64,000 nt of DNA from a phage. A model generated the notes under the pieces. It was given only the letters and a program-made list of their open reading frames with translations, searched no databases and was not told where the DNA came from. Where the stretch lies: the sequence record PX092659.1. One strand, given 5' to 3'. The position numbers were made by a program, and so were the translations under genes. Positions 3,808-56,004 of the stretch are shown piece after piece; position 1 is the first letter of the stretch, and each line of letters begins with the position of its first letter.

Positions 3808-4298
3808 TTGATTATAATGGTCTAAAGACCATTTTTGGTGAAAAACTACCAGAACCTCATATCTTCTTTGCTACGGTTGCTGCGCATAAACATGTTCCTA
3901 GCTATGCTTTTCTGCGTAGAGAACTAGGAATTTCATCTGCGCATACTAACCGTAAAGTATGGAAGAAATTTGTAGAGGCTTATGGTAAAGCAATTCCTCC
4001 GGCTCCACCGGCTCCACCATTAACTCTTTCTAAAGATTTAACTGCGAGCATGTCAGTTGAAGAGGGAGCAGCATTAACACTTTCTGTTACTGCAACTGGT
4101 GGTACTGGTCCATATACTTATGCATGGACTAAAGATGGTTCTCCTATTCCGGAAGCTTCAGGAGCTACCTATACTAAGCCTGCAGCAGCTACGGAGGATT
4201 CTGGAGCCTATAAAGTAACTGTAACAGATAGTAAGCAAGTAAGCAAGGACTCTACTACATGTGCTGTGACAGTTAATCCTACTGTTCCTGGAGGCTAA
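3804..4298 (+). CDS. head decoration protein with C-terminal Ig-like domain (pb10-like)
   Basis: 164 aa; PPAPPAPP linker followed by Ig-like fold signature (LTLSVTATGGTGPYTYAWTKDGSPIP...SGAYKVTVTD); size equals T5 pb10. Confidence 0.6.
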   Translation: MIDYNGLKTIFGEKLPEPHIFFATVAAHKHVPSYAFLRRELGISSAHTNRKVWKKFVEAYGKAIPPAPPAPPLTLSKDLTASMSVEEGAALTLSVTATGGTGPYTYAWTKDGSPIPEASGATYTKPAAATEDSGAYKVTVTDSKQVSKDSTTCAVTVNPTVPGG

Positions 4299-4301
4299 TA
4301 A

Positions 4302-4934
4302 ATGACACAAGCTGCTATTGACTATAACAAGTTAAAATCAGCACCCGTTCATTTAGATGCTTATATTAAATCTATTGATAGCGAATCCAAAGAGGGCGTT
4401 GTAAAAATCCGTGGATTCGCTAATACAATTAGTAAAGATCGCGCTGGTGATGTAATTCCTGCTTCTGCGTGGAAAACATCTAATGCACTTACTAACTATA
4501 TGAAAAACCCGATTATTCTTTTCGGACACGATCATCGTCGTCCAATCGGTAAGTGTATTGATCTTAACCCTACTGAAATGGGTCTCGAAATAGAATGCGA
4601 GATCTATGAAAGTTCTGACCCGGCTATCTTTTCACTAATTAAAAACGGTGTACTGAAAACTTTTAGTATCGGATTCCGCTGCCTAGATGCAGAGTGGGAT
4701 GAAGCTACTGATATATTTATTATTAAAGATTTAGAACTATACGAAGTTTCGGTAGTTTCTGTACCTTGTAATCAGGACTCAACGTTCAATCTCGCTAAGA
4801 GCATGAATGGTCATGATTATACTGAATGGCGTAAATCTTTTACTGCAATAAGTTCTAAAGCTGTCCCAGCTCAAGAACGTAATCTTTCTGAACTAGAAAA
4901 ACTTGCGATAGCTTTAGGCTACGTTAAAGAATAA
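4302..4934 (+). CDS. prohead maturation protease
   Basis: 210 aa directly upstream of major capsid gene; HK97-like protease position and size (T5 pb11-like); conserved His (GHDHRRPIGK) and Ser-containing segments. Confidence 0.78.
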   Translation: MTQAAIDYNKLKSAPVHLDAYIKSIDSESKEGVVKIRGFANTISKDRAGDVIPASAWKTSNALTNYMKNPIILFGHDHRRPIGKCIDLNPTEMGLEIECEIYESSDPAIFSLIKNGVLKTFSIGFRCLDAEWDEATDIFIIKDLELYEVSVVSVPCNQDSTFNLAKSMNGHDYTEWRKSFTAISSKAVPAQERNLSELEKLAIALGYVKE

Positions 4935-4951
4935 CGGAGAATTATTTAAAA

Positions 4952-6328
4952 ATGACTATTGATATTAATAAGCTGAAAGAAGAACTTGGTCTGGGTGATC
5001 TGGCTAAATCTCTGGAAGGTCTGACCGCTGCTCAGAAAGCTCAGGAAGCTGAACGTATGCGTAAAGAGCAGGAAGAAAAAGAACTGGCTCGTATGAATGA
5101 CCTGGTTTCTAAAGCAGTTGGCGAAGATCGTCAGAAACTGGAACAAGCTCTGGAACTAGTTAAGTCCCTGGATGAAAAATCTAAAAAGAGCGCAGAACTG
5201 TTCGCACAGACTGTAGAAAAACAGCAGGAAACTATTGTTGGTCTTCAGGATGAAATTAAATCTCTGCTGACAGCTCGTGAAGGTCGTTCCTTCGTTGGTG
5301 ATAGTGTTGCTAAAGCACTGTACGGTACTCAGGAAAACTTTGAAGATGAAGTTGAAAAACTGGTTCTGTTATCTTATGTAATGGAAAAGGGCGTATTCGA
5401 GACCGAACACGGTCAAAAACACCTGAAAGCAGTGAATCAGTCTTCTTCTGTAGAAGTTTCTAGTGAAAGCTATGAAACTATTTTCTCTCAGCGTATTATC
5501 CGTGACCTGCAGAAAGAGCTTGTAGTTGGCGCACTGTTCGAAGAACTGCCGATGTCCAGTAAGATTCTTACTATGCTGGTTGAACCGGATGCTGGTAAAG
5601 CTACTTGGGTTGCTGCTTCTACTTATGGTACTGATGCAACTACTGGTGATGAAGTTAAAGGTGCTCTTAAAGAAATCCACTTCAGTACTTACAAACTGGC
5701 TGCTAAGTCCTTCATTACTGATGAAACTGAAGAAGATGCAATCTTCTCCCTGCTGCCACTGCTTCGTAAGCGTCTGATCGAAGCACACGCTGTTTCTATT
5801 GAAGAAGCCTTCATGACTGGTGATGGTTCCGGTAAACCGAAAGGTCTGCTGACTCTTGCTAGTGAAGATAGTGCTAAAGTTATTACTGAAGCTAAAGCTG
5901 ATGGTTCCGTACTGGTAACTGCTAAAACTATCTCTAAATTGCGTCGTAAACTGGGCCGTCATGGTCTGAAACTGAGCAAACTGGTACTGATTGTATCTAT
6001 GGATGCTTACTATGATCTGCTGGAAGATGAAGAATGGCAGGATGTTGCCCAAGTTGGTAATGATGCTGTTAAACTGCAGGGTCAGGTTGGTCGTATTTAT
6101 GGTCTGCCGGTTGTAGTTTCTGAGTACTTCCCAGCTAAAGCTACTTCCGCAGAGTTCGCAGTTATTGTTTATAAAGATAACTTCGTAATGCCACGTCAGC
6201 GTGCTGTTACTGTTGAACGTGAGCGTCAAGCTGGTAAACAGCGTGATGCTTACTATGTTACTCAGCGTGTTAACCTGCAACGTTACTTTGCAAATGGCGT
6301 TGTATCTGGTGCTTACGCTGCATCTTAA
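4952..6328 (+). CDS. major capsid protein precursor
   Basis: 458 aa; N-terminal coiled-coil delta/scaffold-like domain (KLKEELGLGDLAKSLEGLTAAQKAQEAERMRKEQEEKELARMNDL) followed by HK97-fold body; strongly E. coli-optimal codon usage; followed by intrinsic terminator. Confidence 0.9.
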   Translation: MTIDINKLKEELGLGDLAKSLEGLTAAQKAQEAERMRKEQEEKELARMNDLVSKAVGEDRQKLEQALELVKSLDEKSKKSAELFAQTVEKQQETIVGLQDEIKSLLTAREGRSFVGDSVAKALYGTQENFEDEVEKLVLLSYVMEKGVFETEHGQKHLKAVNQSSSVEVSSESYETIFSQRIIRDLQKELVVGALFEELPMSSKILTMLVEPDAGKATWVAASTYGTDATTGDEVKGALKEIHFSTYKLAAKSFITDETEEDAIFSLLPLLRKRLIEAHAVSIEEAFMTGDGSGKPKGLLTLASEDSAKVITEAKADGSVLVTAKTISKLRRKLGRHGLKLSKLVLIVSMDAYYDLLEDEEWQDVAQVGNDAVKLQGQVGRIYGLPVVVSEYFPAKATSAEFAVIVYKDNFVMPRQRAVTVERERQAGKQRDAYYVTQRVNLQRYFANGVVSGAYAAS

Positions 6329-27361: not shown

Positions 27362-29200
27362 TTATTCTAAGTAGGAAAATCCTTCTGCATCTTTTTTGAC
27401 AGTAATCTTATGGGCTAGTGGATGCGTATGCCCATGAGAAACAATGATAGAGTTTAGACTTTCTTCCTCATTTAATAGTTCAACAAGGGTGTCAAGTCCT
27501 TTAGTATCAATAAAGCTAATTACTTCATCAAGGAATAGAAGATTAATATTAACTTTACTAATAGATGTTAACAGCATCCGAATAGCTAACAGGGTTGCTA
27601 GATTAATTCGACTTTGCTGACCAGTAGAGCAGTTCTCCATACTGGTACGGTTTCCATCATTGAAGATTACTACTTGTAATTTTGTTTCATCAAGCTCAAA
27701 TCCAAGTGCGAACTTACCACCAGTCATAATGGAAAGGTATTTATTGATAAGCTCTTCAAATACTTTCACACTATGTTCTAGTTTATACCCTACCAGATTT
27801 TTCAATGCGGCGATCAGAATATCGAGGTCAGCAACAGCTTCTGATACTTCATTTAGTTTGGAAGTAATCTCAGACATTTCTGCCTCAGCTTTCTCAATCT
27901 GTTCTAGTTTCGCTTTATATTTTGCATTGGCTAATTCAACATTTGCATTATGCTCTTTGGCAATTGCAACCTTAGAGCGGCCATCAGCGATTTCCTGTTC
28001 TAATTGTCGGATTTGCACCTGTAGGATTTGCACATTGAGTTCTTCAAAAGAAGCATCACTCATTGAATTTTTGAACTCGTCTCTAGCTACCACTGCTTTA
28101 TCCAAAGCATCCTTTGCTCTAGTATACGCAACGTACTCAAGTTGTTCTTTCTTCAACTGTTCTAGCTTAGCTTCTAGAGATTGCTTCTCTTTGAACAGAG
28201 GATCATATTCTACTCTAGCCATATCCATTGCTTTTTGAGCAGCAGTTGTATCCAGATGAGTACCACAAGTAGGACATTCAGTATTTGAAGCCTCTTGCTT
28301 GAACTTCTGATAACGTTTCTTAACTTCTCCTGCACGTGAGGTTACAATCGTTAGGTCACGCGTAACACTCGAGATCTCTTCATTTTGGTCAGTGGGCGCA
28401 GGCAAATTTTTGAAAGGCTCGAAAGATTGTTCGGCAACTTGTACAGCTTTGTCCAAATTACGCAATTTAGTAATATTAGCCTCTTGAGACTTGGCTAATG
28501 CCGCCTTAATTTTCGATTCAGTAAGTTCTTGTGCTAATGGCTCTTCATCAAACTCCGGTACTTCTACAGGTTCCTGCAAAGTACCTAGATTATTTTTCCC
28601 ATTAAGGATTTTCGTAATTACAGCCATCTGGCCCTGCAAATTATTTAAGGTATTTGCTATTTCTTTACGATCAGCCTTAATAGTTTCTGACATTTCTTTG
28701 TACTGTTCTTGATTGAACAAGTTGACAAGAAAAGCCTTACGTGTTGCATCTGTTGCTTTTAGAAAGTCTAGATTGGAACCCACTGATTGATAAATTAGTT
28801 TGGTGAATGTTTGGAAGTCACCACCCATAATCTCTTCAATCATCTTGTATGTTTGGGTTGCCGTGTGTCCACTAATATCTTCTCCATTCTTAATAAGAGT
28901 TACTTTAGCAGTTGATTTAACTACTTTGTGTAGTTCATACTCATCTTCATCTTTTGAGAAGTAAGCGTGCATATCATACTCTTTCTTCGGAGAAGACCAG
29001 GAGAACAGAGCATCCTTCTTAATACCGCGTGAGTTCTTATTATAAAAGAGTTCTTCAATAATAGTAGCAATGGTGGATTTCCCTAGCCCATTGCCACCAA
29101 TTAGTTGAGTAACTGGATTCTTATCGAAATGAATTACGATGTCCTTACCGTAAGACATAACGTTACTAAATTTTAGTGTCTTAATTGTAATCTTTGACAT
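27362..29200 (-). CDS. sbcC: SbcC/Rad50-like ATPase (D13-like)
   Basis: 612 aa; Walker A GGNGLGKST at N-terminus, long central coiled coil, C-terminal signature and Walker B (LLFLDEVISFID). Confidence 0.8.
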   Translation of the reverse strand: MSKITIKTLKFSNVMSYGKDIVIHFDKNPVTQLIGGNGLGKSTIATIIEELFYNKNSRGIKKDALFSWSSPKKEYDMHAYFSKDEDEYELHKVVKSTAKVTLIKNGEDISGHTATQTYKMIEEIMGGDFQTFTKLIYQSVGSNLDFLKATDATRKAFLVNLFNQEQYKEMSETIKADRKEIANTLNNLQGQMAVITKILNGKNNLGTLQEPVEVPEFDEEPLAQELTESKIKAALAKSQEANITKLRNLDKAVQVAEQSFEPFKNLPAPTDQNEEISSVTRDLTIVTSRAGEVKKRYQKFKQEASNTECPTCGTHLDTTAAQKAMDMARVEYDPLFKEKQSLEAKLEQLKKEQLEYVAYTRAKDALDKAVVARDEFKNSMSDASFEELNVQILQVQIRQLEQEIADGRSKVAIAKEHNANVELANAKYKAKLEQIEKAEAEMSEITSKLNEVSEAVADLDILIAALKNLVGYKLEHSVKVFEELINKYLSIMTGGKFALGFELDETKLQVVIFNDGNRTSMENCSTGQQSRINLATLLAIRMLLTSISKVNINLLFLDEVISFIDTKGLDTLVELLNEEESLNSIIVSHGHTHPLAHKITVKKDAEGFSYLE

Positions 29201-30158
29201 ATTTTGCAGCTCTAGCTAAGATTCTATCAATATCGCCTTGAGATAGCTTCTCGACTTCACGGAAGTAAAGTTCAAGTTCACCTAACATATCAAGATCAAC
29301 AAGATTTAACTTAGCGTCTTTAGTGACTCGATGATTAATCTTCTTATCTAATAAATCAGAGTCTTTGATAGACTTTAATTGAACAACGTCACCAGTAACT
29401 TCATAGACTACACGATCATAATCACTAGGTTCCATCTCTTCACCAGCTCCGATTGTTTTACGAATCAGTTGTGGTAAATCACCGAGTTCAATCCATTCTA
29501 CTTTTAATGTGTCGGTATCAACGATAAAACAACCATTTGTACCTTTTGTGCGTTCTCTATGGAACGATGTAGTTAATGGAGATCCTGGGTAGAGAAGTCT
29601 AGTAGATCCGATAGTCTGGCTATTAGTATAAGAATGTAAATCGCCAGCAATTACAGTATCATAACAGTTGTACTTAGTTAGATCAATTTCTGGTTTTACA
29701 TGTGGAGGGATTTCACCACGAACATGTGTGAAACATAGTTTTGATTCAGATGGTTTCCATTTGGATTTATGGATCTCATCATATGGAACAATATCAAATT
29801 CAGGGGAACGATATGGTTTGGTAATTACTTCCCACTTACCACTCGTTACTTTATTAATAACCCCCGCATAATGATATAGACATGAAATGGTTTTAGTTAA
29901 CATTTCATGATTTCCAGTAAAGATTTTGCCTGGATGGTCAAGTCTTGACATGAACTGTTCAAGCAGTTCTATTTCTTCTGACGACGGGTCGGCAACATCA
30001 AGTATATCACCACCAGCAATATGAAGATCACAGTTATGATTATGGAATATATCATTTAACCGTTCTCCTAGCATCAGGAAGCGACGCTTCTGCCATTCTT
30101 TAGGTATCTTATCTTGGCCCAACTTAATATGATGATCAGCACTAAATAGTATTTTCAC
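29181..30158 (-). CDS. sbcD: SbcD/Mre11-like nuclease (D12-like)
   Basis: 325 aa; calcineurin-like phosphoesterase motifs (FSADHHI, GDILD, GNHE); GTG start; overlaps sbcC-like start. Confidence 0.8.
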   Translation of the reverse strand: MKILFSADHHIKLGQDKIPKEWQKRRFLMLGERLNDIFHNHNCDLHIAGGDILDVADPSSEEIELLEQFMSRLDHPGKIFTGNHEMLTKTISCLYHYAGVINKVTSGKWEVITKPYRSPEFDIVPYDEIHKSKWKPSESKLCFTHVRGEIPPHVKPEIDLTKYNCYDTVIAGDLHSYTNSQTIGSTRLLYPGSPLTTSFHRERTKGTNGCFIVDTDTLKVEWIELGDLPQLIRKTIGAGEEMEPSDYDRVVYEVTGDVVQLKSIKDSDLLDKKINHRVTKDAKLNLVDLDMLGELELYFREVEKLSQGDIDRILARAAKYVKDYN

Positions 30159-30618
30159 TTAATAGACTATCATATACTGCATTTGCTACAGTCTCTGCTT
30201 CATATATGGAATCTGTGTATCCATAATGCTTACCTTTAATTTGAACAAAATATCTACCAGTTGAATGTTTTAAGAAAACACCTTTTGGTAATTCTTTATT
30301 ACTGTTTTTGTTTCTATTCAACTGATTGCGTGACTTAGAAGAGTCTAGTAAATTATCTATGGCATTATTTAATGGATTCCTATCCTTATGGTCAATTTCT
30401 TCTGGAATGTACCCATACACGTATAAGAAAGCTAGCTGATGTGCTTTGTACCTTTTACCGTCAATTCGGATTTCCAATCTGATATAGTTATCAGATACCC
30501 ATACTTCCGTCCCTGCTATGGAGCCTTTTGATACTCTTCCTCTGGAGACTTTCCATCTAAATATACCAGTTAGATGGTCATAGTCCAATAACTCTTTAAG
30601 TCTATCTTGTGTAATCAT
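30142..30618 (-). CDS. HNH homing endonuclease with AP2-like DNA-binding domain
   Basis: 158 aa; N-terminal MITQDRLKELLDY...AHQLAFLYVYGYIPEEIDHKDRNPLNN HNH core plus C-terminal AP2-like module; no SD; sits between D11-like and sbcD-like genes. Confidence 0.8.
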   Translation of the reverse strand: MITQDRLKELLDYDHLTGIFRWKVSRGRVSKGSIAGTEVWVSDNYIRLEIRIDGKRYKAHQLAFLYVYGYIPEEIDHKDRNPLNNAIDNLLDSSKSRNQLNRNKNSNKELPKGVFLKHSTGRYFVQIKGKHYGYTDSIYEAETVANAVYDSLLSENTI

Positions 30619-49748: not shown

Positions 49749-49943
49749 TTAATCATAAAAAAGACCACGAATAGTATTAGCAAATTTAAGTATAATAGCG
49801 CGGTTTGAGCTACTTAACTTTTTAATATCGAAAGTGGGATCAGTCAAATATCTCGCCATAAATTTTACTTGTTTAGCTGAAAGTTGACCCTTATTCCACT
49901 TTTTAATTTTACCATAACATACCCAATATTCTTTATTCATCAT
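49749..49943 (-). CDS. hypothetical small protein
   Basis: 64-aa basic ORF at end of early small-gene operon. Confidence 0.35.
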   Translation of the reverse strand: MMNKEYWVCYGKIKKWNKGQLSAKQVKFMARYLTDPTFDIKKLSSSNRAIILKFANTIRGLFYD

Positions 49944-50325
49944 TTAGTCCCGGAACATAGATCCCAACACGATTTAATTGTTCTTTAGCTTCTTTGAGAA
50001 TATCTGGAGTGTACTCCCAAATATCATCTTCCACCTGTAAAAGATGTGGCGAACAACCGTCATCAGGCACACGACATATGGCCAAACCACGTGGATGGAA
50101 CAAAGAGAAATTTAGGGCAACAATCAAGCCCATAGCAGACAATTCATTCCAATCCAATTCCCATTCCCTGGCATATCCAGACAGGAAAATGCCAATGCAT
50201 GGATCATCTATTTGCTGCTCCGGAAAAGTGAAGGAGGCTTGTCTTACCCCCAACCAACGTTGTAGCAGCTTCTCCGCACGCTTCACCAAACTAGGATCAA
50301 TCTGACGCCAGTATACTTGTTCCAT
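49933..50325 (-). CDS. hypothetical protein, paralog of 50335..50763
   Basis: 130 aa; shares PCIG...W.ELD...MGL(I/V).ALN..LF.P...W.Y(S/T)P...G..(I/V)PGL pattern with upstream neighbour. Confidence 0.45.
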   Translation of the reverse strand: MEQVYWRQIDPSLVKRAEKLLQRWLGVRQASFTFPEQQIDDPCIGIFLSGYAREWELDWNELSAMGLIVALNFSLFHPRGLAICRVPDDGCSPHLLQVEDDIWEYTPDILKEAKEQLNRVGIYVPGLNDE

Positions 50326-50334
50326 TATGCCTCC

Positions 50335-50763
50335 TTAGGCAGTTAAACCCGGAATTTGATAACCAAAACGGCGAAGTTTTTGGATACCATCATTTACTTC
50401 TTCCGGTGAGTAAGACCAACCATAACGTTCATTAACCTGAAAACCAGGAGATTCACTAGTTTTATAGTTAACAACGAGGCGATGCTTAGCAGGCATAAAC
50501 AGCTTATAGTTTAACGCAAAAACTAAGCCCATTTCATCTAACTCTTTCCAGCCGACAATTTCTTCAAGACCATCCTCTACCTGCACAATTAAACCAATAC
50601 AGGGAGCCTCATCAATATCATCTTTAAAAGCAAAGGAGATTTCGTTATTCTCACACCATATTTTCAAAGAGTTAATAGCCTCATTATACAGGCTAGCTGG
50701 GAGAGTACGCCAAAAGTTAACCAAAATTGGGTTAGCTTCTTTAGAGAGTACATTATTGAACAT
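50335..50763 (-). CDS. hypothetical protein, paralog of 49933..50325
   Basis: 142 aa; same conserved motif series as downstream neighbour. Confidence 0.45.
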   Translation of the reverse strand: MFNNVLSKEANPILVNFWRTLPASLYNEAINSLKIWCENNEISFAFKDDIDEAPCIGLIVQVEDGLEEIVGWKELDEMGLVFALNYKLFMPAKHRLVVNYKTSESPGFQVNERYGWSYSPEEVNDGIQKLRRFGYQIPGLTA

Positions 50764-50765
50764 AT

Positions 50766-51272
50766 TTACACCTTAAATTGTTGTAAGGATTTACACATTT
50801 CAAGATCTGGGCTAAATTCTAGCATATAGCTAACAGCTTTTAAATCTTGAAGATTTATCCCAGTCCTACCGTTGACTATAACTGTTGGATACTGATACAT
50901 CATAGCACCCGCATCATCAAGTACACACCAATGTTTGAGCTTATACTTTTCAACGAAACGAAGAACAGAATTACCCCTAGATAATCCACCTCCAGTAAAA
51001 TCCGTTGTACCAAGAAAACGATCGATAAGACCTAATCTGGTCATAATCTGAACGTTCTCCATCTCATTTCTAACAGAGAACCAAGATGATACTCCAACAA
51101 TCATTATCGGAGAAGGACGAATAAAGTCCTGAAAAGCCTTGAGAAGCGGTTTGAAAACCCAGTCACTTCCAAAGAAAATCTTTTCATCATCAGGTGCATG
51201 ATGGTGGGAGATGCTCGAATTGAGCACCCCATCAATGTCTAGAAAAATAATCGGAGTATTACTTATTTCCAC
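50766..51272 (-). CDS. HAD-superfamily phosphatase-like protein (possible nucleotidase)
   Basis: 168 aa; N-terminal motif I FLDIDGVL (DxDG), downstream VLDDAG-like motif. Confidence 0.5.
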   Translation of the reverse strand: MEISNTPIIFLDIDGVLNSSISHHHAPDDEKIFFGSDWVFKPLLKAFQDFIRPSPIMIVGVSSWFSVRNEMENVQIMTRLGLIDRFLGTTDFTGGGLSRGNSVLRFVEKYKLKHWCVLDDAGAMMYQYPTVIVNGRTGINLQDLKAVSYMLEFSPDLEMCKSLQQFKV

Positions 51273-51441
51273 TTTTGTCCCTTTCTAAGAACGTATCATA
51301 CTCAACCGTATCAACATATATGACACCATAGTCATCGGATTTATAGTCCATTTCCCACAGCTCACAGCGATAGCACCAACTACCGTCCGCCCATACAAAT
51401 ATATCATCAGGGTGTGCATACACAGATTTAATTATGGACAT
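51259..51441 (-). CDS. hypothetical small protein
   Basis: 60-aa ORF overlapping both neighbours by 14 nt; ATG start. Confidence 0.3.
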   Translation of the reverse strand: MSIIKSVYAHPDDIFVWADGSWCYRCELWEMDYKSDDYGVIYVDTVEYDTFLERDKSGNK

Positions 51442-52255
51442 ATTTGTTCCCCGGCATATAAGGCCTACCCTCTAGATGAGCTTCTACACGAGCAATAAAA
51501 TCAGGGTCACTGAAGGCATCTACAGCCCCTTTACCCCAGTAAGGGATACCGCGTTCTTCCAACTGGTACATCTCACTACGAGTCATGCCTTGATAGCCAG
51601 GTTCCGCTGCTAGGGCATTATCATAGTAGTTAACAACCATTAGCTTGGCAGCAGTAAGGTTAAGAATAGGAAATAATTCCCAGTAGAAGTTAATTACTTG
51701 GTTAGAGCAACCAACCACAATGATCATATCTTGACTGGTAATACCATCAAAAACATTGTACATTTCTGTATATGCTGGAGCATGCTCACCAAAGAAGATG
51801 ACATTAGGTTTAACCCATTTATAGTCATCTGGGTCAATAGAGTTATACCCAACATCAATAATTCGTTTATTACTACTATTGTAGCTATCAGCTACAACAA
51901 CCTCCTTTAAGTATCCATGAATGTGGAGAATATCATTATGGGGAACACCAGCACGCTCAATAAGGTCATCAACGTTAGTAGTCAAATTTACTACTTGACC
52001 TGGGTATTGTTTATACCACTCACCAATACGAAGATGCGCAAGGTTAGGTTCAACAGTTTTTAGCTCTTCACGACGCTTGTTGTAAAACATATGGGTTTTA
52101 TGATAAAAATTACCACGAAAGGCATGAATATTACATACTTCTTCTAGATCATAATCATCCCACAATGCTTTACCACTAGCAGTATCAGTACGAAAGGCTC
52201 GTACACCACTTTCAACGCTCAAACCCGCACCGCTAATAATAATTAATCTACGCAT
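51428..52255 (-). CDS. Sir2-family (sirtuin-like) NAD-binding protein lacking zinc ribbon
   Basis: 275 aa; sirtuin motifs ISGAGLSVESGVRAFR (GAGxS...G(I/V)xxFR), TTNVDDL (TQNxDxL), catalytic His in LHIHGYL, VIFFGE, IIVVGCS; no CxxC zinc-binding pairs. Confidence 0.65.
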   Translation of the reverse strand: MRRLIIISGAGLSVESGVRAFRTDTASGKALWDDYDLEEVCNIHAFRGNFYHKTHMFYNKRREELKTVEPNLAHLRIGEWYKQYPGQVVNLTTNVDDLIERAGVPHNDILHIHGYLKEVVVADSYNSSNKRIIDVGYNSIDPDDYKWVKPNVIFFGEHAPAYTEMYNVFDGITSQDMIIVVGCSNQVINFYWELFPILNLTAAKLMVVNYYDNALAAEPGYQGMTRSEMYQLEERGIPYWGKGAVDAFSDPDFIARVEAHLEGRPYMPGNKYVHN

Positions 52256-52469: not shown

Positions 52470-52641
52470 AAAGTTTCTCCTCTAATTCCATAACACGATT
52501 TTCATAAGAGGCACGCAACTTTTCAATTGCCAGTGCACGCACCGTAACCTCATTAGAATTAATAGCTAATTGGGCCAGATCTTCTGTTTCCATACGTCCG
52601 TTGTAAATTAAGCGATATTTAAGATGTTTTACGTTTTTCAT
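52438..52641 (-). CDS. hypothetical small protein
   Basis: 67-aa ORF with predicted helical C-terminus. Confidence 0.35.
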   Translation of the reverse strand: MKNVKHLKYRLIYNGRMETEDLAQLAINSNEVTVRALAIEKLRASYENRVMELEEKLYGILEADTTR

Positions 52642-52650
52642 TCTTGTTCC

Positions 52651-52932
52651 TTAGTTCTGTACTGTAAATTCATTCTTATCACAGTGAGCATAATAATACC
52701 CATACATACGATAAATCTTCACAGCCTTAGTAGACCCCTTCGATTCTTCGTAATCAATCCAGAGCCACTTGTCTTTACCTACATAATGTACCCGAAACTT
52801 CTTAACTTTCTTATCATTCCATGTTGCAACAACACGACGATAATCAAATCCGCCCAACCAATCCAGAGCTTTACGTTCTTCACTAGGCTCTCCAAGATGG
52901 GAGACATCTACTTTAGGAAGCAACTCGCTCAT
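52651..52932 (-). CDS. hypothetical protein
   Basis: 93 aa; first gene after promoter, SD GAGAGGAG. Confidence 0.45.
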   Translation of the reverse strand: MSELLPKVDVSHLGEPSEERKALDWLGGFDYRRVVATWNDKKVKKFRVHYVGKDKWLWIDYEESKGSTKAVKIYRMYGYYYAHCDKNEFTVQN

Positions 52933-52960
52933 AACTTTCTCCTCTCAAATTTATAAATCT

Positions 52961-52989
52961 ATTATATATAAATTTTTGGCTGAAAGCAA
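52961..52989 (-). promoter_or_regulatory. T5-type early promoter
   Basis: minus strand TTGCTT(52989-52984)-17 bp-TATAAT(52966-52961) followed by ATAGATTTATAAATTTGAGAGGAG. Confidence 0.7.
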
Positions 52990-53024
52990 ATAAAATAAAA
53001 GCCAGGTCGACTAGCAACCCGGCT
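52988..53024 (-). terminator. intrinsic terminator after nrdD
   Basis: minus-strand AGCCGGG...CCUGGCU hairpin (one G-U pair) followed by UUUAUUUUAUUU. Confidence 0.6.
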
Positions 53025-53031
53025 GATTAGC

Positions 53032-54858
53032 TTACTTAAGATTTAAGTGTTTTACTCTACCAAGAACTTCTTTTTGTTTCCCAGAATTGAAAGGCCTACT
53101 GCCAGGAGATCCCAGGTACCCGCAAACCCTACGTGTAACCTCTATTTCTTCAGACCCACAACTCGGACATACAAACCCACGTTCAGAGGCAACAGATTCA
53201 CCCATATACCCACAGTTGAAGCACTCATCAATTGGTATATTAACACCAATATAATGGCTACATTCTAGCCCCTTATCCACCACATACTCAAGAGCTTTGT
53301 GGAACTTTTTCATTTGAGGTAGTTCCACAAATGATATATTACCACCATTAGCTATTTTGGTAAAATGAGCCTCGTACTCAAATTTAGTATCTGGAGCTAC
53401 CTTCTCTCTTACGTCCAAATGGTGACTATTAGTAAGATAGCCTTTGTCTGTTAACCAAGAATACTCTGGGAATCTACGTTCTAGTAATTTATTAAAACGA
53501 TTACATAGAGACTCACTAGGAGTAGCATACAAGCTAAACCCAAGATTAGTCTCATTAGCTTTAACTTCGCAACGATTTTTTAGGTGAGTGAGAACTTCCT
53601 CTGTAAATTCAATACAGTCCCTATGGGTCTGTGGTAAACTAAACATTATTTGGCACATCTCATAGACCCCAATATACCCAAGAGATACAGAGGATCTACC
53701 CTCAAAAATAGGCCATACATATTCTTCCCCTTCTAAACGTGCACCAAACCCACCGTGCATATAAAGAATAGGGGCTTGTTTAGCCTTAACTTTCTTCAGT
53801 CTGTTTAAGAAGAAGTCATGCGCTTCAAAAGCCTCATCCACATATTTGTCTAGAATACCCCAGAAATCTTCAAAAACTCCATCTGCCTCAGCAGCAACCA
53901 TAGGTAGATTGATAGACACAACACCTAAATTATTACGTCCTGCAATTTCTCCAGAGGGGATAGCAGATAAAAAACTACGACAACCCATAGGGGCTTTAAA
54001 ATCACCAGTAACAGCTACAACTCTCTCGTAACTTAAATAGTCTGGATACATACGAGTAGCAGAACACTCAAGTGCTAGCTGTTTTATATCATAGTTAGGA
54101 TCACCTGGGTTTTTATTTAACCCTTCTTTAACTGAGAATACTAGTTTAGGGAAGATAGGGGTTGACTCAGCAGCACCTAAACCTTTAATGCGATTTTGGA
54201 GGATGGCTTTCTGAATCATCCTTTCCTCCCACTCCTGCCCTAATCCAAAGCCAAGCGTAACAAAAGGGGTCTGCCCATTAGAGTTAAATAATGAATTAGT
54301 TTCATACTCTAGAGCTTGGAATGCATCATAACACTCTTTTTCAGTAAGCTCAGTAGCATACACAGCAGCTTTTCTTTCATCCTTGAGCCAACGTAGCCCA
54401 CGACCCAGATGTTTATTGTAAGACTTTCTGACATACGGGGCTAGAACCTCGTCGATACGATCAATAGAGGTGCCACCATACTGAGCACCAGATACTTGGG
54501 CAATAATCTGAGCAGTGATTGCACATGCAGTAGTTATGGATTTAGGAGTTTCAATATTTGCATTACCAATTTTAGTACCATTCTTCAGCATGCCACCAAG
54601 GTCTACTAAGCAACAGTTAGTGTACCCCTGCGCCCTGTAATCCATATCATGAATGTGTATCTTACCTAGATTATGTGCGTCTAATAGATGTTTGGGTAAT
54701 TCCTGCGATACTAAATACTTGTTGATTTCTCCGGCTAATAAGTCTCTTTGAGTATGGAACATCTCACTAGGCTTATTAGCATTATTATGTTGTAAGTCCT
54801 TGTCAGCAGTTAGAGTGAGCAGGCCTTTGCAATTCTCAATTAATTCATTCTCTGTCAT
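53032..54858 (-). CDS. nrdD: anaerobic ribonucleoside-triphosphate reductase
   Basis: 608 aa; C-terminal glycyl-radical motif RVCGYLGSP and zinc site CFNCGY...CPSCGS; catalytic Cys region. Confidence 0.9.
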   Translation of the reverse strand: MTENELIENCKGLLTLTADKDLQHNNANKPSEMFHTQRDLLAGEINKYLVSQELPKHLLDAHNLGKIHIHDMDYRAQGYTNCCLVDLGGMLKNGTKIGNANIETPKSITTACAITAQIIAQVSGAQYGGTSIDRIDEVLAPYVRKSYNKHLGRGLRWLKDERKAAVYATELTEKECYDAFQALEYETNSLFNSNGQTPFVTLGFGLGQEWEERMIQKAILQNRIKGLGAAESTPIFPKLVFSVKEGLNKNPGDPNYDIKQLALECSATRMYPDYLSYERVVAVTGDFKAPMGCRSFLSAIPSGEIAGRNNLGVVSINLPMVAAEADGVFEDFWGILDKYVDEAFEAHDFFLNRLKKVKAKQAPILYMHGGFGARLEGEEYVWPIFEGRSSVSLGYIGVYEMCQIMFSLPQTHRDCIEFTEEVLTHLKNRCEVKANETNLGFSLYATPSESLCNRFNKLLERRFPEYSWLTDKGYLTNSHHLDVREKVAPDTKFEYEAHFTKIANGGNISFVELPQMKKFHKALEYVVDKGLECSHYIGVNIPIDECFNCGYMGESVASERGFVCPSCGSEEIEVTRRVCGYLGSPGSRPFNSGKQKEVLGRVKHLNLK

Positions 54859-55708
54859 TGATTATTTCCTCGATAAACTTTATAGCTACTTTTGGTTCAA
54901 TATTGAAGAATTCCGTAGCGCCATCAAAATCTTTGTAATGGCAATTCTGTTCTTTAAAGTAGTTATGAGCTAATTTTTCGATTCGAACTGCACTACTATA
55001 TTCGCCAATTTCAAATACTTTAAGTATTTCCAAATCAATAAGGTGGCCACTAGATTTAATATGTAGAAGCCTACGCTCTGGATTGTTAGACCTACCTATT
55101 TTAACTCCATGTGTGGGGCTATGCATAACATATATCTTAGTACTTTCTAAATCTCTATAGCTACAGTAAGGACAACCGTTCCCTCTTAATACAGATCCTG
55201 GAGTAGCTCCCCACCTATGCCCTGCGCCACAGAGAAAGGTAGTCTTAGTATTCGCATTAACATATTCACCTACTATTCTGATATTTCTGGCAGTAAGACG
55301 ATCATTTATAACACTAATACTAAGTTTCTGCTTATTAATAGCACAAGACGGACAGCCACTCCCCCTATTAATTATGCTATTAAGCGTAGTAGTCCACTCA
55401 TGACCACAAATACACCTAAATTTAGTGTTTATATCAACACTATTTTTATATCCCCCCAACAATGTAATACCTCTGTCCTGTAATACAGAACTAATTTTAT
55501 CAATATCTAGTTTACGGCTATTAGTAGAGCAAGTAGGACAATTGGTCTTTCCATTCCTAATAGCGTCAAATTTAGCTGTCCATTGATGGCCATATTCACA
55601 CTGATACGTATGCCTATACCTAGAATTTTGATACGGCTTATCCACCATAGTAAAACCACGCTCGGCTAGGCATTTATCTACTTCTTCTTGGGTTAATTTT
55701 TTCGGCAT
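54845..55708 (-). CDS. zinc-ribbon plus T5orf172/GIY-YIG-like putative homing endonuclease
   Basis: approx 288 aa from ATG 55708 (track extends to TTG 55765); four repeats ending CPTC/CPSC/CPYC; C-terminal IYVMHSPTHGVKIGRSNNPERRL...GATEFF; consensus promoter upstream. Confidence 0.6.
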   Translation of the reverse strand: MPKKLTQEEVDKCLAERGFTMVDKPYQNSRYRHTYQCEYGHQWTAKFDAIRNGKTNCPTCSTNSRKLDIDKISSVLQDRGITLLGGYKNSVDINTKFRCICGHEWTTTLNSIINRGSGCPSCAINKQKLSISVINDRLTARNIRIVGEYVNANTKTTFLCGAGHRWGATPGSVLRGNGCPYCSYRDLESTKIYVMHSPTHGVKIGRSNNPERRLLHIKSSGHLIDLEILKVFEIGEYSSAVRIEKLAHNYFKEQNCHYKDFDGATEFFNIEPKVAIKFIEEIINDRE

Positions 55709-55736
55709 TACTCTTCTCCATAGAATTTTTACATTT

Positions 55737-55765
55737 ATTATACTAAACATTATCCACCATGTCAA
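55737..55765 (-). promoter_or_regulatory. consensus sigma70 promoter
   Basis: minus strand TTGACA(55765-55760)-17 bp-TATAAT(55742-55737), then SD GGAGAAGAG and ATG 55708. Confidence 0.7.
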
Positions 55766-55902
55766 TTAAAATTTTCTTTCGCCATCTAATACTGTAATAT
55801 TTCGCGTATAAATAGTTGAGTATCTAGTATCACACATCCCACGTTAAAAGCAAGCAAATTTTTTATTTAAATGCAATATCATAGGCTTATTTAAAATTGT
55901 AG

Positions 55903-55931
55903 TTGCTTTTTACTGTATATATTGGTATAAT
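55903..55931 (+). promoter_or_regulatory. T5-type promoter upstream of phoH (divergent from 55737..55765)
   Basis: TTGCTT(55903-55908)-17 bp-TATAAT(55926-55931) with TG at -15/-14 (extended -10). Confidence 0.65.
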
Positions 55932-56004
55932 ATATTTGTAAGTTGATAAACAAGATCTTTTTGTTGATCCTCTGTTAGCGAAGTACACTATAGGAGTGTT
56001 ATTT

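Follow-up and report, generated by a model that had tools for sequence, protein, structure and literature searches.

The T5-like phage studied here appears to bring only the catalytic subunit of an anaerobic ribonucleotide reductase, NrdD, and the radical on Gly580 of this enzyme is most likely installed by the radical-SAM activase of the host, NrdG. We infer both the activator and the benefit to the phage, and put the probability that NrdG already present in the host activates the phage enzyme at roughly 70%. Glycyl-radical enzymes need a radical-SAM activase. In E. coli K-12 nrdG adjoins nrdD, and in Salmonella, too, nrdG lies beside nrdD, with the nrdDG operon expressed anaerobically. The observation of a phage nrdD without nrdG is an ordinary one: the 2009 RNRdb listed 30 phage NrdD proteins against 21 phage NrdG proteins (PMC2795772), and the nrdD-only pattern of T5, SPC35, and EPS7 is in print under the name "Enterobacteria phage cluster 4" (Dwivedi et al., 2013; PMC3653736). 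The pattern in the T5 group is therefore already known, having been documented since 2009–2013. The interpretation that host NrdG supplies the radical is supported by the evidence below.

The nrdD locus and its setting

The window, by which we mean the whole 64-kb stretch of DNA that was analyzed, comes from a T5-like phage (Demerecviridae, Markadamsvirinae). In a megablast search, positions 52600–56000 matched 443 phage records, all of them T5-like, and the top full-length match was Salmonella phage EH1 at 96% nucleotide identity (Demerecviridae; Markadamsvirinae; Epseptimavirus). No record in the phage collection matched the 64-kb window end to end; the best, covered to 88% at 94.7% identity, was the 25-kb match to Escherichia phage HildyBeyeler. 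A preliminary description of this DNA had assigned nrdD the range 53032–55708. This range does contain nrdD, but it also spans a second gene, which encodes an endonuclease (Table 1).

Table 1. Features of the nrdD locus, in window positions
Feature	Position	Strand	Remarks
Small ORF (ORF93), T5-group-specific protein	52651..52932	minus	93 aa; directly downstream of nrdD, in the place expected for nrdG
Intrinsic-terminator-like hairpin	53000..53024	minus	10 pairs (6 G-C), then a T-run; from a scan
nrdD, predicted class III (anaerobic) ribonucleoside-triphosphate reductase	53032..54858	minus	608 aa, without ATP-cone
Homing-endonuclease-like gene, free-standing	54845..55708	minus	287 aa; Pfam DUF4379, CapR, MUG113, T5orf172
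Sigma-70 promoter	55737..55765	minus	12/12 consensus: TTGACA, 17-nt spacer, TATAAT; from a promoter scan

Membership by curated models, the glycyl-radical motif, and the active-site and zinc residues all point to a bona fide NrdD. The protein matches Pfam NRDD (PF13597; 5.4e-157, 524 bits against a cutoff of 26), passes the equivalog cutoff of NCBIfam PRK09263 (NF006732; 792 bits against 657), and scores 535 bits against a cutoff of 326 with TIGR02487. The motif RVCGYLGSP, which had been described as intact, is indeed so: it occupies residues 577–585, the C terminus matches Pfam Gly_radical (8e-14), and the radical Gly580 aligns with Gly580 of T4 NrdD. The presumed thiyl-radical Cys293 aligns with T4 Cys290, and the other hallmark residues, Cys82/Cys83 and Asn310 (T4 reference sites Cys79 and Asn311), are present in conserved context. 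The zinc site is formed by Cys546, Cys549, Cys564, and Cys567 (T4 Cys543, Cys546, Cys561, and Cys564). Among PDB entries, 9d3x and T4 NrdD (1h78) are the nearest solved structures; T4 NrdD is 51% identical overall and resembles the phage protein in length (605 aa), in having no ATP-cone, and in its catalytic Cys, Asn, Zn-Cys4, and Gly580 residues.

Since the match to PRK09263 begins only at model position 103 (positions 103–707 of 712), the phage NrdD lacks the N-terminal ATP-cone. In keeping with this, BLASTP aligns it with residues 98–706 of E. coli NrdD, at 52% identity. The protein does not belong to the ATP-cone-regulated, E. coli type; E. coli NrdD has an N-terminal ATP-cone region of ~100 residues and an adjacent nrdG, and the phage has neither. 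Among phage proteins, it is 99.7% identical to NrdD of Salmonella phage S124 and 57–62% identical to the T5 and HASG4 proteins. The gene is of the Epseptimavirus type, an allele about 60% identical to that of Tequintavirus.

The gene upstream of nrdD had been called a zinc-ribbon endonuclease, and domain searches agree. Pfam finds three DUF4379 treble-clef zinc-finger stretches together with a T5orf172/MUG113 nuclease-like domain, and PHROG 681 assigns the product as an endonuclease. Between the stop of this ORF and the nrdD start there is a 14-nt overlap. Only 27 phage records contain the gene at full length, compared with the 443 that match the wider locus, and it is absent from the annotation of the nrdD locus in T5, HASG4, Klebsiella phage Kpn02, and Providencia phage PR1. 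HildyBeyeler carries a remnant, consisting of ~17 nt of the 5′ end and 172 nt of the 3′ end, behind the same promoter. The nuclease domain, the sporadic presence, and the decayed remnant together indicate a free-standing homing endonuclease of the T5orf172/GIY-YIG-like kind, and its distribution, judged from these records, is that of the usual homing-endonuclease cycle of gain and decay. The nrdD gene of T4 is likewise ringed by homing endonucleases (I-TevII and mobC).

The sigma-70 promoter is kept in HildyBeyeler, which lacks the body of the endonuclease gene, and an annotated promoter of T5 abuts nrdD on its upstream side. In the phage described here, unlike in T5, the endonuclease gene lies between promoter and nrdD, and the promoter probably drives an endonuclease-nrdD transcript. 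Downstream, the terminator noted in the preliminary description corresponds to a hairpin that begins 8 nt past the nrdD stop, and terminators are annotated at the equivalent position 3′ of nrdD in both T5 and HASG4. Given this promoter and this terminator, the transcription unit would consist of promoter, endonuclease, nrdD, and terminator.

Selection on nrdD

If no activase is encoded, is the enzyme ever used? One possibility is that T5-like phages retain nrdD as passive baggage, a dispensable or non-functional relic whose product is never activated. The lack of a cognate activase would fit such a relic, as would the T5 reference genome, where a 50-codon in-frame deletion, recognizable by comparison with the 99%-identical HASG4 protein, removes a conserved segment of the barrel. 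This deletion implies that nrdD is dispensable, at least in aerobic laboratory propagation. It is, however, missing from the phage described here, and other observations argue against decay. Compared with EH1, nrdD has 26 synonymous and 5 non-synonymous differences (dN/dS 0.05; the corresponding ratio for the endonuclease gene is 0.22), and is under strong purifying selection. In the comparison with Kpn02, dS was saturated and the ratio unusable. The catalytic, zinc, and glycyl residues are all conserved across genera whose NrdD proteins share only 60–72% identity, hundreds of independent isolates carry the gene at full length, and it retains a strong promoter and a terminator of its own. Judged on these features, nrdD is not a decaying relic, and we consider this explanation unlikely, although it survives better than the other alternatives discussed below.

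Search for an activase in the window and in related genomes

The preliminary description had stated that no ORF in the window carries the radical-SAM motif CxxxCxxC, and both a six-frame motif scan and a profile search bear this out. Translation of the 64-kb window in six frames yields five occurrences of the motif, each in a stop-to-stop fragment of 18–37 aa and none in a real ORF. We also built an NrdG HMM from four sequences (E. coli, T4, VMJ710, and Dax) and ran it with filters off. The positive controls (T4 and Dax) scored 260–274 bits, and nothing NrdG-like in the window was better than E=0.28. A complete phage-encoded system as in T4, with NrdD and a cognate NrdG of ~155 aa that has an N-terminal CX3CX2C, is thus lacking from the window.

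The best match to the NrdG HMM in the window, 8 bits over 24 aa ("GKDKWLWIDY" against "GKDIWLWTGY"), falls in ORF93, which belongs to phrog_7953, a family of unknown function. We considered this ORF as a decayed nrdG and rejected it: the NrdG-like segment is not conserved in the 79-aa members of the family, hhalign gives a probability of 0.1%, and there is no match in Pfam or NCBIfam.

As the window represents ~64 of ~110 kb, absence of nrdG beyond it is judged from the genomes of relatives. In the complete genomes of EH1 (109,346 bp) and HildyBeyeler (111,607 bp), the NrdG HMM found no NrdG-like sequence in any of the six frames, and no ORF of activase size contains CX3CX2C. The matches to CX3CX2C that do occur in these two genomes lie mostly in antisense or very short frames and were set aside; the single real gene among them encodes a 104-aa protein that is considered below. 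Record counts from tblastn agree. NrdD-positive records number 399 for Salmonella phages and 1056 for Escherichia phages, and NrdG-positive records, at E<=1e-3, number 126 and 928. The differences, 273 for Salmonella and 128 for Escherichia, correspond closely to the numbers of T5-like records (271 and 130), which indicates that nrdG is missing from essentially all T5-like phages of Salmonella and Escherichia.

Gene order points the same way. In T5, SPC35, and EPS7, as here, nrdB-nrdA-phoH is divergent from nrdD, which is followed by a terminator, small ORFs, and Sir2, with nrdG absent. The same nrdG-free arrangement (nrdB-nrdA-phoH / nrdD-small ORFs-Sir2) is found in T5, HASG4, Klebsiella phage Kpn02, and Providencia phage PR1, so that the synteny spans Tequintavirus, Sugarlandvirus, and Priunavirus. 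As far as these genomes allow us to judge, nrdD without nrdG is a clade-wide trait of the T5 group and no peculiarity of the 64-kb window.

Could the phage nonetheless encode its own activase beyond the window, as the preliminary description had allowed? The share of the genome beyond the window and the lack of an end-to-end match in the phage collection leave room for this, and there is a precedent within the family: Vibrio phages of the genus Thalassavirus (Demerecviridae), such as Dax, have nrdG three genes downstream of nrdD. The NrdD of Dax is about 51% identical to the phage protein and, like it, has a host-like glycyl loop. Unlike it, Dax NrdD is full length with an ATP-cone and is accompanied by an NrdG that is 57% identical to that of E. 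coli. Dax NrdD is also nearer to E. coli NrdD (59% identity) than to NrdD of the T5 group (51–54%), so the Dax nrdDG pair is probably a separate acquisition. Because the precedent involves a different, more bacterial type of NrdD, because two complete close relatives are negative in both scans and the record counts are negative for the T5-like phages of Salmonella and Escherichia as a group, and because nrdD-only phages have been reported before, we regard an activase elsewhere in this genome as very improbable.

A second glycyl-radical protein in related phages

Outside the range covered by the window, the relatives encode a 122-aa autonomous glycyl-radical protein resembling GrcA/YfiD (motif RVSGYAV; Pfam Gly_radical, 4e-18), again with no activase. 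Since these phages carry a second client, reliance on host activases would not be confined to NrdD. Beside the grcA-like gene lies a conserved gene with a GTG start, mis-annotated as shorter ORFs, for a 104-aa Cys-rich protein (phrog_4499, function unknown).

This neighbor bears on another explanation, namely that NrdD receives its radical from an activator other than NrdG, either a different host activase such as PflA or an unrecognized phage factor such as the 104-aa protein. The latter holds the sole co-directional CX3CX2C in the genomes of the relatives, and essentially every T5-like record has a conserved copy, next to a glycyl-radical gene. However, only ~55 residues follow its motif, and half of these form an acidic tail. 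Against the NrdG HMM it reaches 3 bits; it has no match in Pfam, and it has homologues in jumbo phages of unrelated hosts. A protein of 104 aa is too short for the partial barrel of a radical-SAM enzyme, NrdG at ~155 aa being among the smallest. We therefore rejected it as a candidate activase on the grounds of its size and its lack of similarity to NrdG. Glycyl-radical activases are, moreover, specific for their own substrate enzymes. Activation by a factor other than NrdG thus seems highly unlikely. Equally improbable, in our view, is the broader proposal that T5-like phages systematically parasitize host radical-SAM activases, with two clients and no activase, or, in its radical variant, that the 104-aa CX3CX2C protein acts as, or with, a minimal activase.

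The glycyl loop resembles that of host NrdD

The preliminary description had presumed that the phage relies on host NrdG or else encodes the activase elsewhere, and the first of these options gains support, as an inference, from its fit with the purifying selection on nrdD and with the likeness of the glycyl loop to that of the host enzyme. NrdD is presumed to contact NrdG through its C-terminal Zn/Gly domain (PMC4493059). Within this domain, the glycyl loop of the phage protein (residues 572–606) is 74% identical to that of E. coli NrdD, compared with 52% for the whole protein, and the stretch VTRRVCGYLGSP is shared exactly by the two loops. T4 NrdD, whose own NrdG is encoded downstream of nrdD, shows the reverse, with 53% identity to E. 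coli NrdD in the loop and 59% overall.

We extended the comparison to phages of enterobacterial hosts, using the last 78 residues of E. coli NrdD as a tblastn query. Over these C-terminal 78 aa, T5-like phages are 60–65% identical to E. coli, the highest values among phages of enterobacterial hosts; rV5-like phages reach 58–59%, phAPEC8/PVP-SE1-like phages 55–58%, and T4-like phages 44–48%. An NrdG is annotated beside the C-terminal match in the phAPEC8/PVP-SE1-like hits and in one T4-like phage (S16). Vibrio phage Dax, with a host-like loop despite its own NrdG, counts against the argument from the loop. The pattern is the one expected if NrdD of the T5 group must stay a substrate of host NrdG and, with few independent lineages to compare, is suggestive.

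Discussion

Taken together, the locus is an ordinary nrdD unit of the T5 group: nrdD, preceded by a strong early-type promoter and an optional homing endonuclease and closed by a terminator. How, then, would the enzyme become active? We favor activation by the NrdG that is already present in the host when infection begins. Since the glycyl radical persists through many turnovers (PMC4493059), this pre-existing pool may suffice. As the phage NrdD lacks the ATP-cone, it would also escape feedback by dATP, and a dATP-insensitive NrdD would be predicted to raise the supply of dNTPs in anoxic hosts such as gut bacteria.

In the literature searched, we found no experiment in which host NrdG was tested on a T5-type NrdD. 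When produced in E. coli, T4 NrdD reportedly depended on the NrdG of T4 itself; if that holds, cross-activation cannot be taken for granted.

Should host NrdG indeed activate the phage NrdD, T5-like phages would depend on one particular host gene for their replication under anaerobic conditions. T5-like phages are widely used as candidates for biocontrol or therapy directed at Salmonella and E. coli. Dependence on NrdG, if true, would bear both on how these phages perform in the gut and on the routes by which their hosts become resistant.

A second glycyl-radical protein in relatives

In a region beyond the window, the genomes of T5-like relatives contain a gene for a GrcA/YfiD-like autonomous glycyl-radical protein of 122 amino acids, which carries the motif QLTIRVSGYAVRF, matches Pfam Gly_radical at 4e-18 and is annotated in Escherichia phage HildyBeyeler as a "putative formate acetyltransferase". 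Since we found no PflA-like activase in the relatives that encode it, this protein is a second glycyl-radical client, and one that would need a host activase.

Directly downstream of the grcA-like gene, and likewise outside the window, lies the gene for a conserved 104-amino-acid protein (family phrog_4499), with a GTG start and an AGGAGA ribosome-binding site. Its N terminus is basic and its tail acidic, and it contains a CICSCWMCGNPRK cluster; existing annotation covers it merely as fragments of 30–58 amino acids. It is found in essentially all T5-like records, with distant relatives in jumbo phages.

Genes flanking nrdD

A full-length copy of the T5orf172 endonuclease gene, which lies upstream of nrdD, occurs in just 27 phage records. 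In HildyBeyeler, a remnant of approximately 17 nt of the 5′ end and 172 nt of the 3′ end follows the same promoter. Between the window and Salmonella phage EH1, the endonuclease (dS 0.21, dN/dS 0.22) has diverged more than the adjoining nrdD (dS 0.07).

Downstream of the nrdD unit, the same strand carries further genes (49933-52255, minus), including those for a Sir2-family protein, a HAD_SAK_2 domain protein and two tandem DUF7415 paralogues, all conserved in T5.

Coordinates of nrdD alleles, neighboring genes and glycyl-radical-associated genes
Feature	Source	Position	Strand
nrdD	Window	53032-54858	minus
nrdD	T5 reference (L008, NC_005859.1)	3959-5683	
nrdD	HASG4 (L011)	3959-5833	
T5orf172 endonuclease	Window	54845-55708	
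Endonuclease remnant site	HildyBeyeler (L012)	2440-2990	
Sir2-family protein	Window	51428-52255	minus
HAD_SAK_2 domain protein	Window	50766-51272	minus
DUF7415 paralogue	Window	50335-50763	minus
DUF7415 paralogue	Window	49933-50325	minus
GrcA/YfiD-like protein	EH1 (L001, OR413342.1)	28604-28972	minus
GrcA/YfiD-like protein	HildyBeyeler (L014)	29678-30046	plus
104-aa protein	EH1	28226-28531	minus
104-aa protein	HildyBeyeler (L014)	30128-30442	plus

Diverged nrdD alleles and the T5 reference strain

Comparison of the window with other Markadamsvirinae revealed two deeply diverged nrdD alleles in T5-like genomes that are otherwise closely related. Amino-acid identity between the two, the window type (at least 95% in about 51 records) and the T5/HASG4 type, is only about 60%. 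Although HildyBeyeler is classified as a Tequintavirus, it carries the window-type allele, which suggests that nrdD alleles have been exchanged by recombination.

Compared with the 99%-identical protein of phage HASG4 (624 amino acids), NrdD of the T5 reference (574 amino acids) has undergone an in-frame deletion of 50 codons that removes the conserved barrel segment "RASVSLGYIG...". Given the loss of this segment, the NrdD of laboratory T5 is probably inactive.
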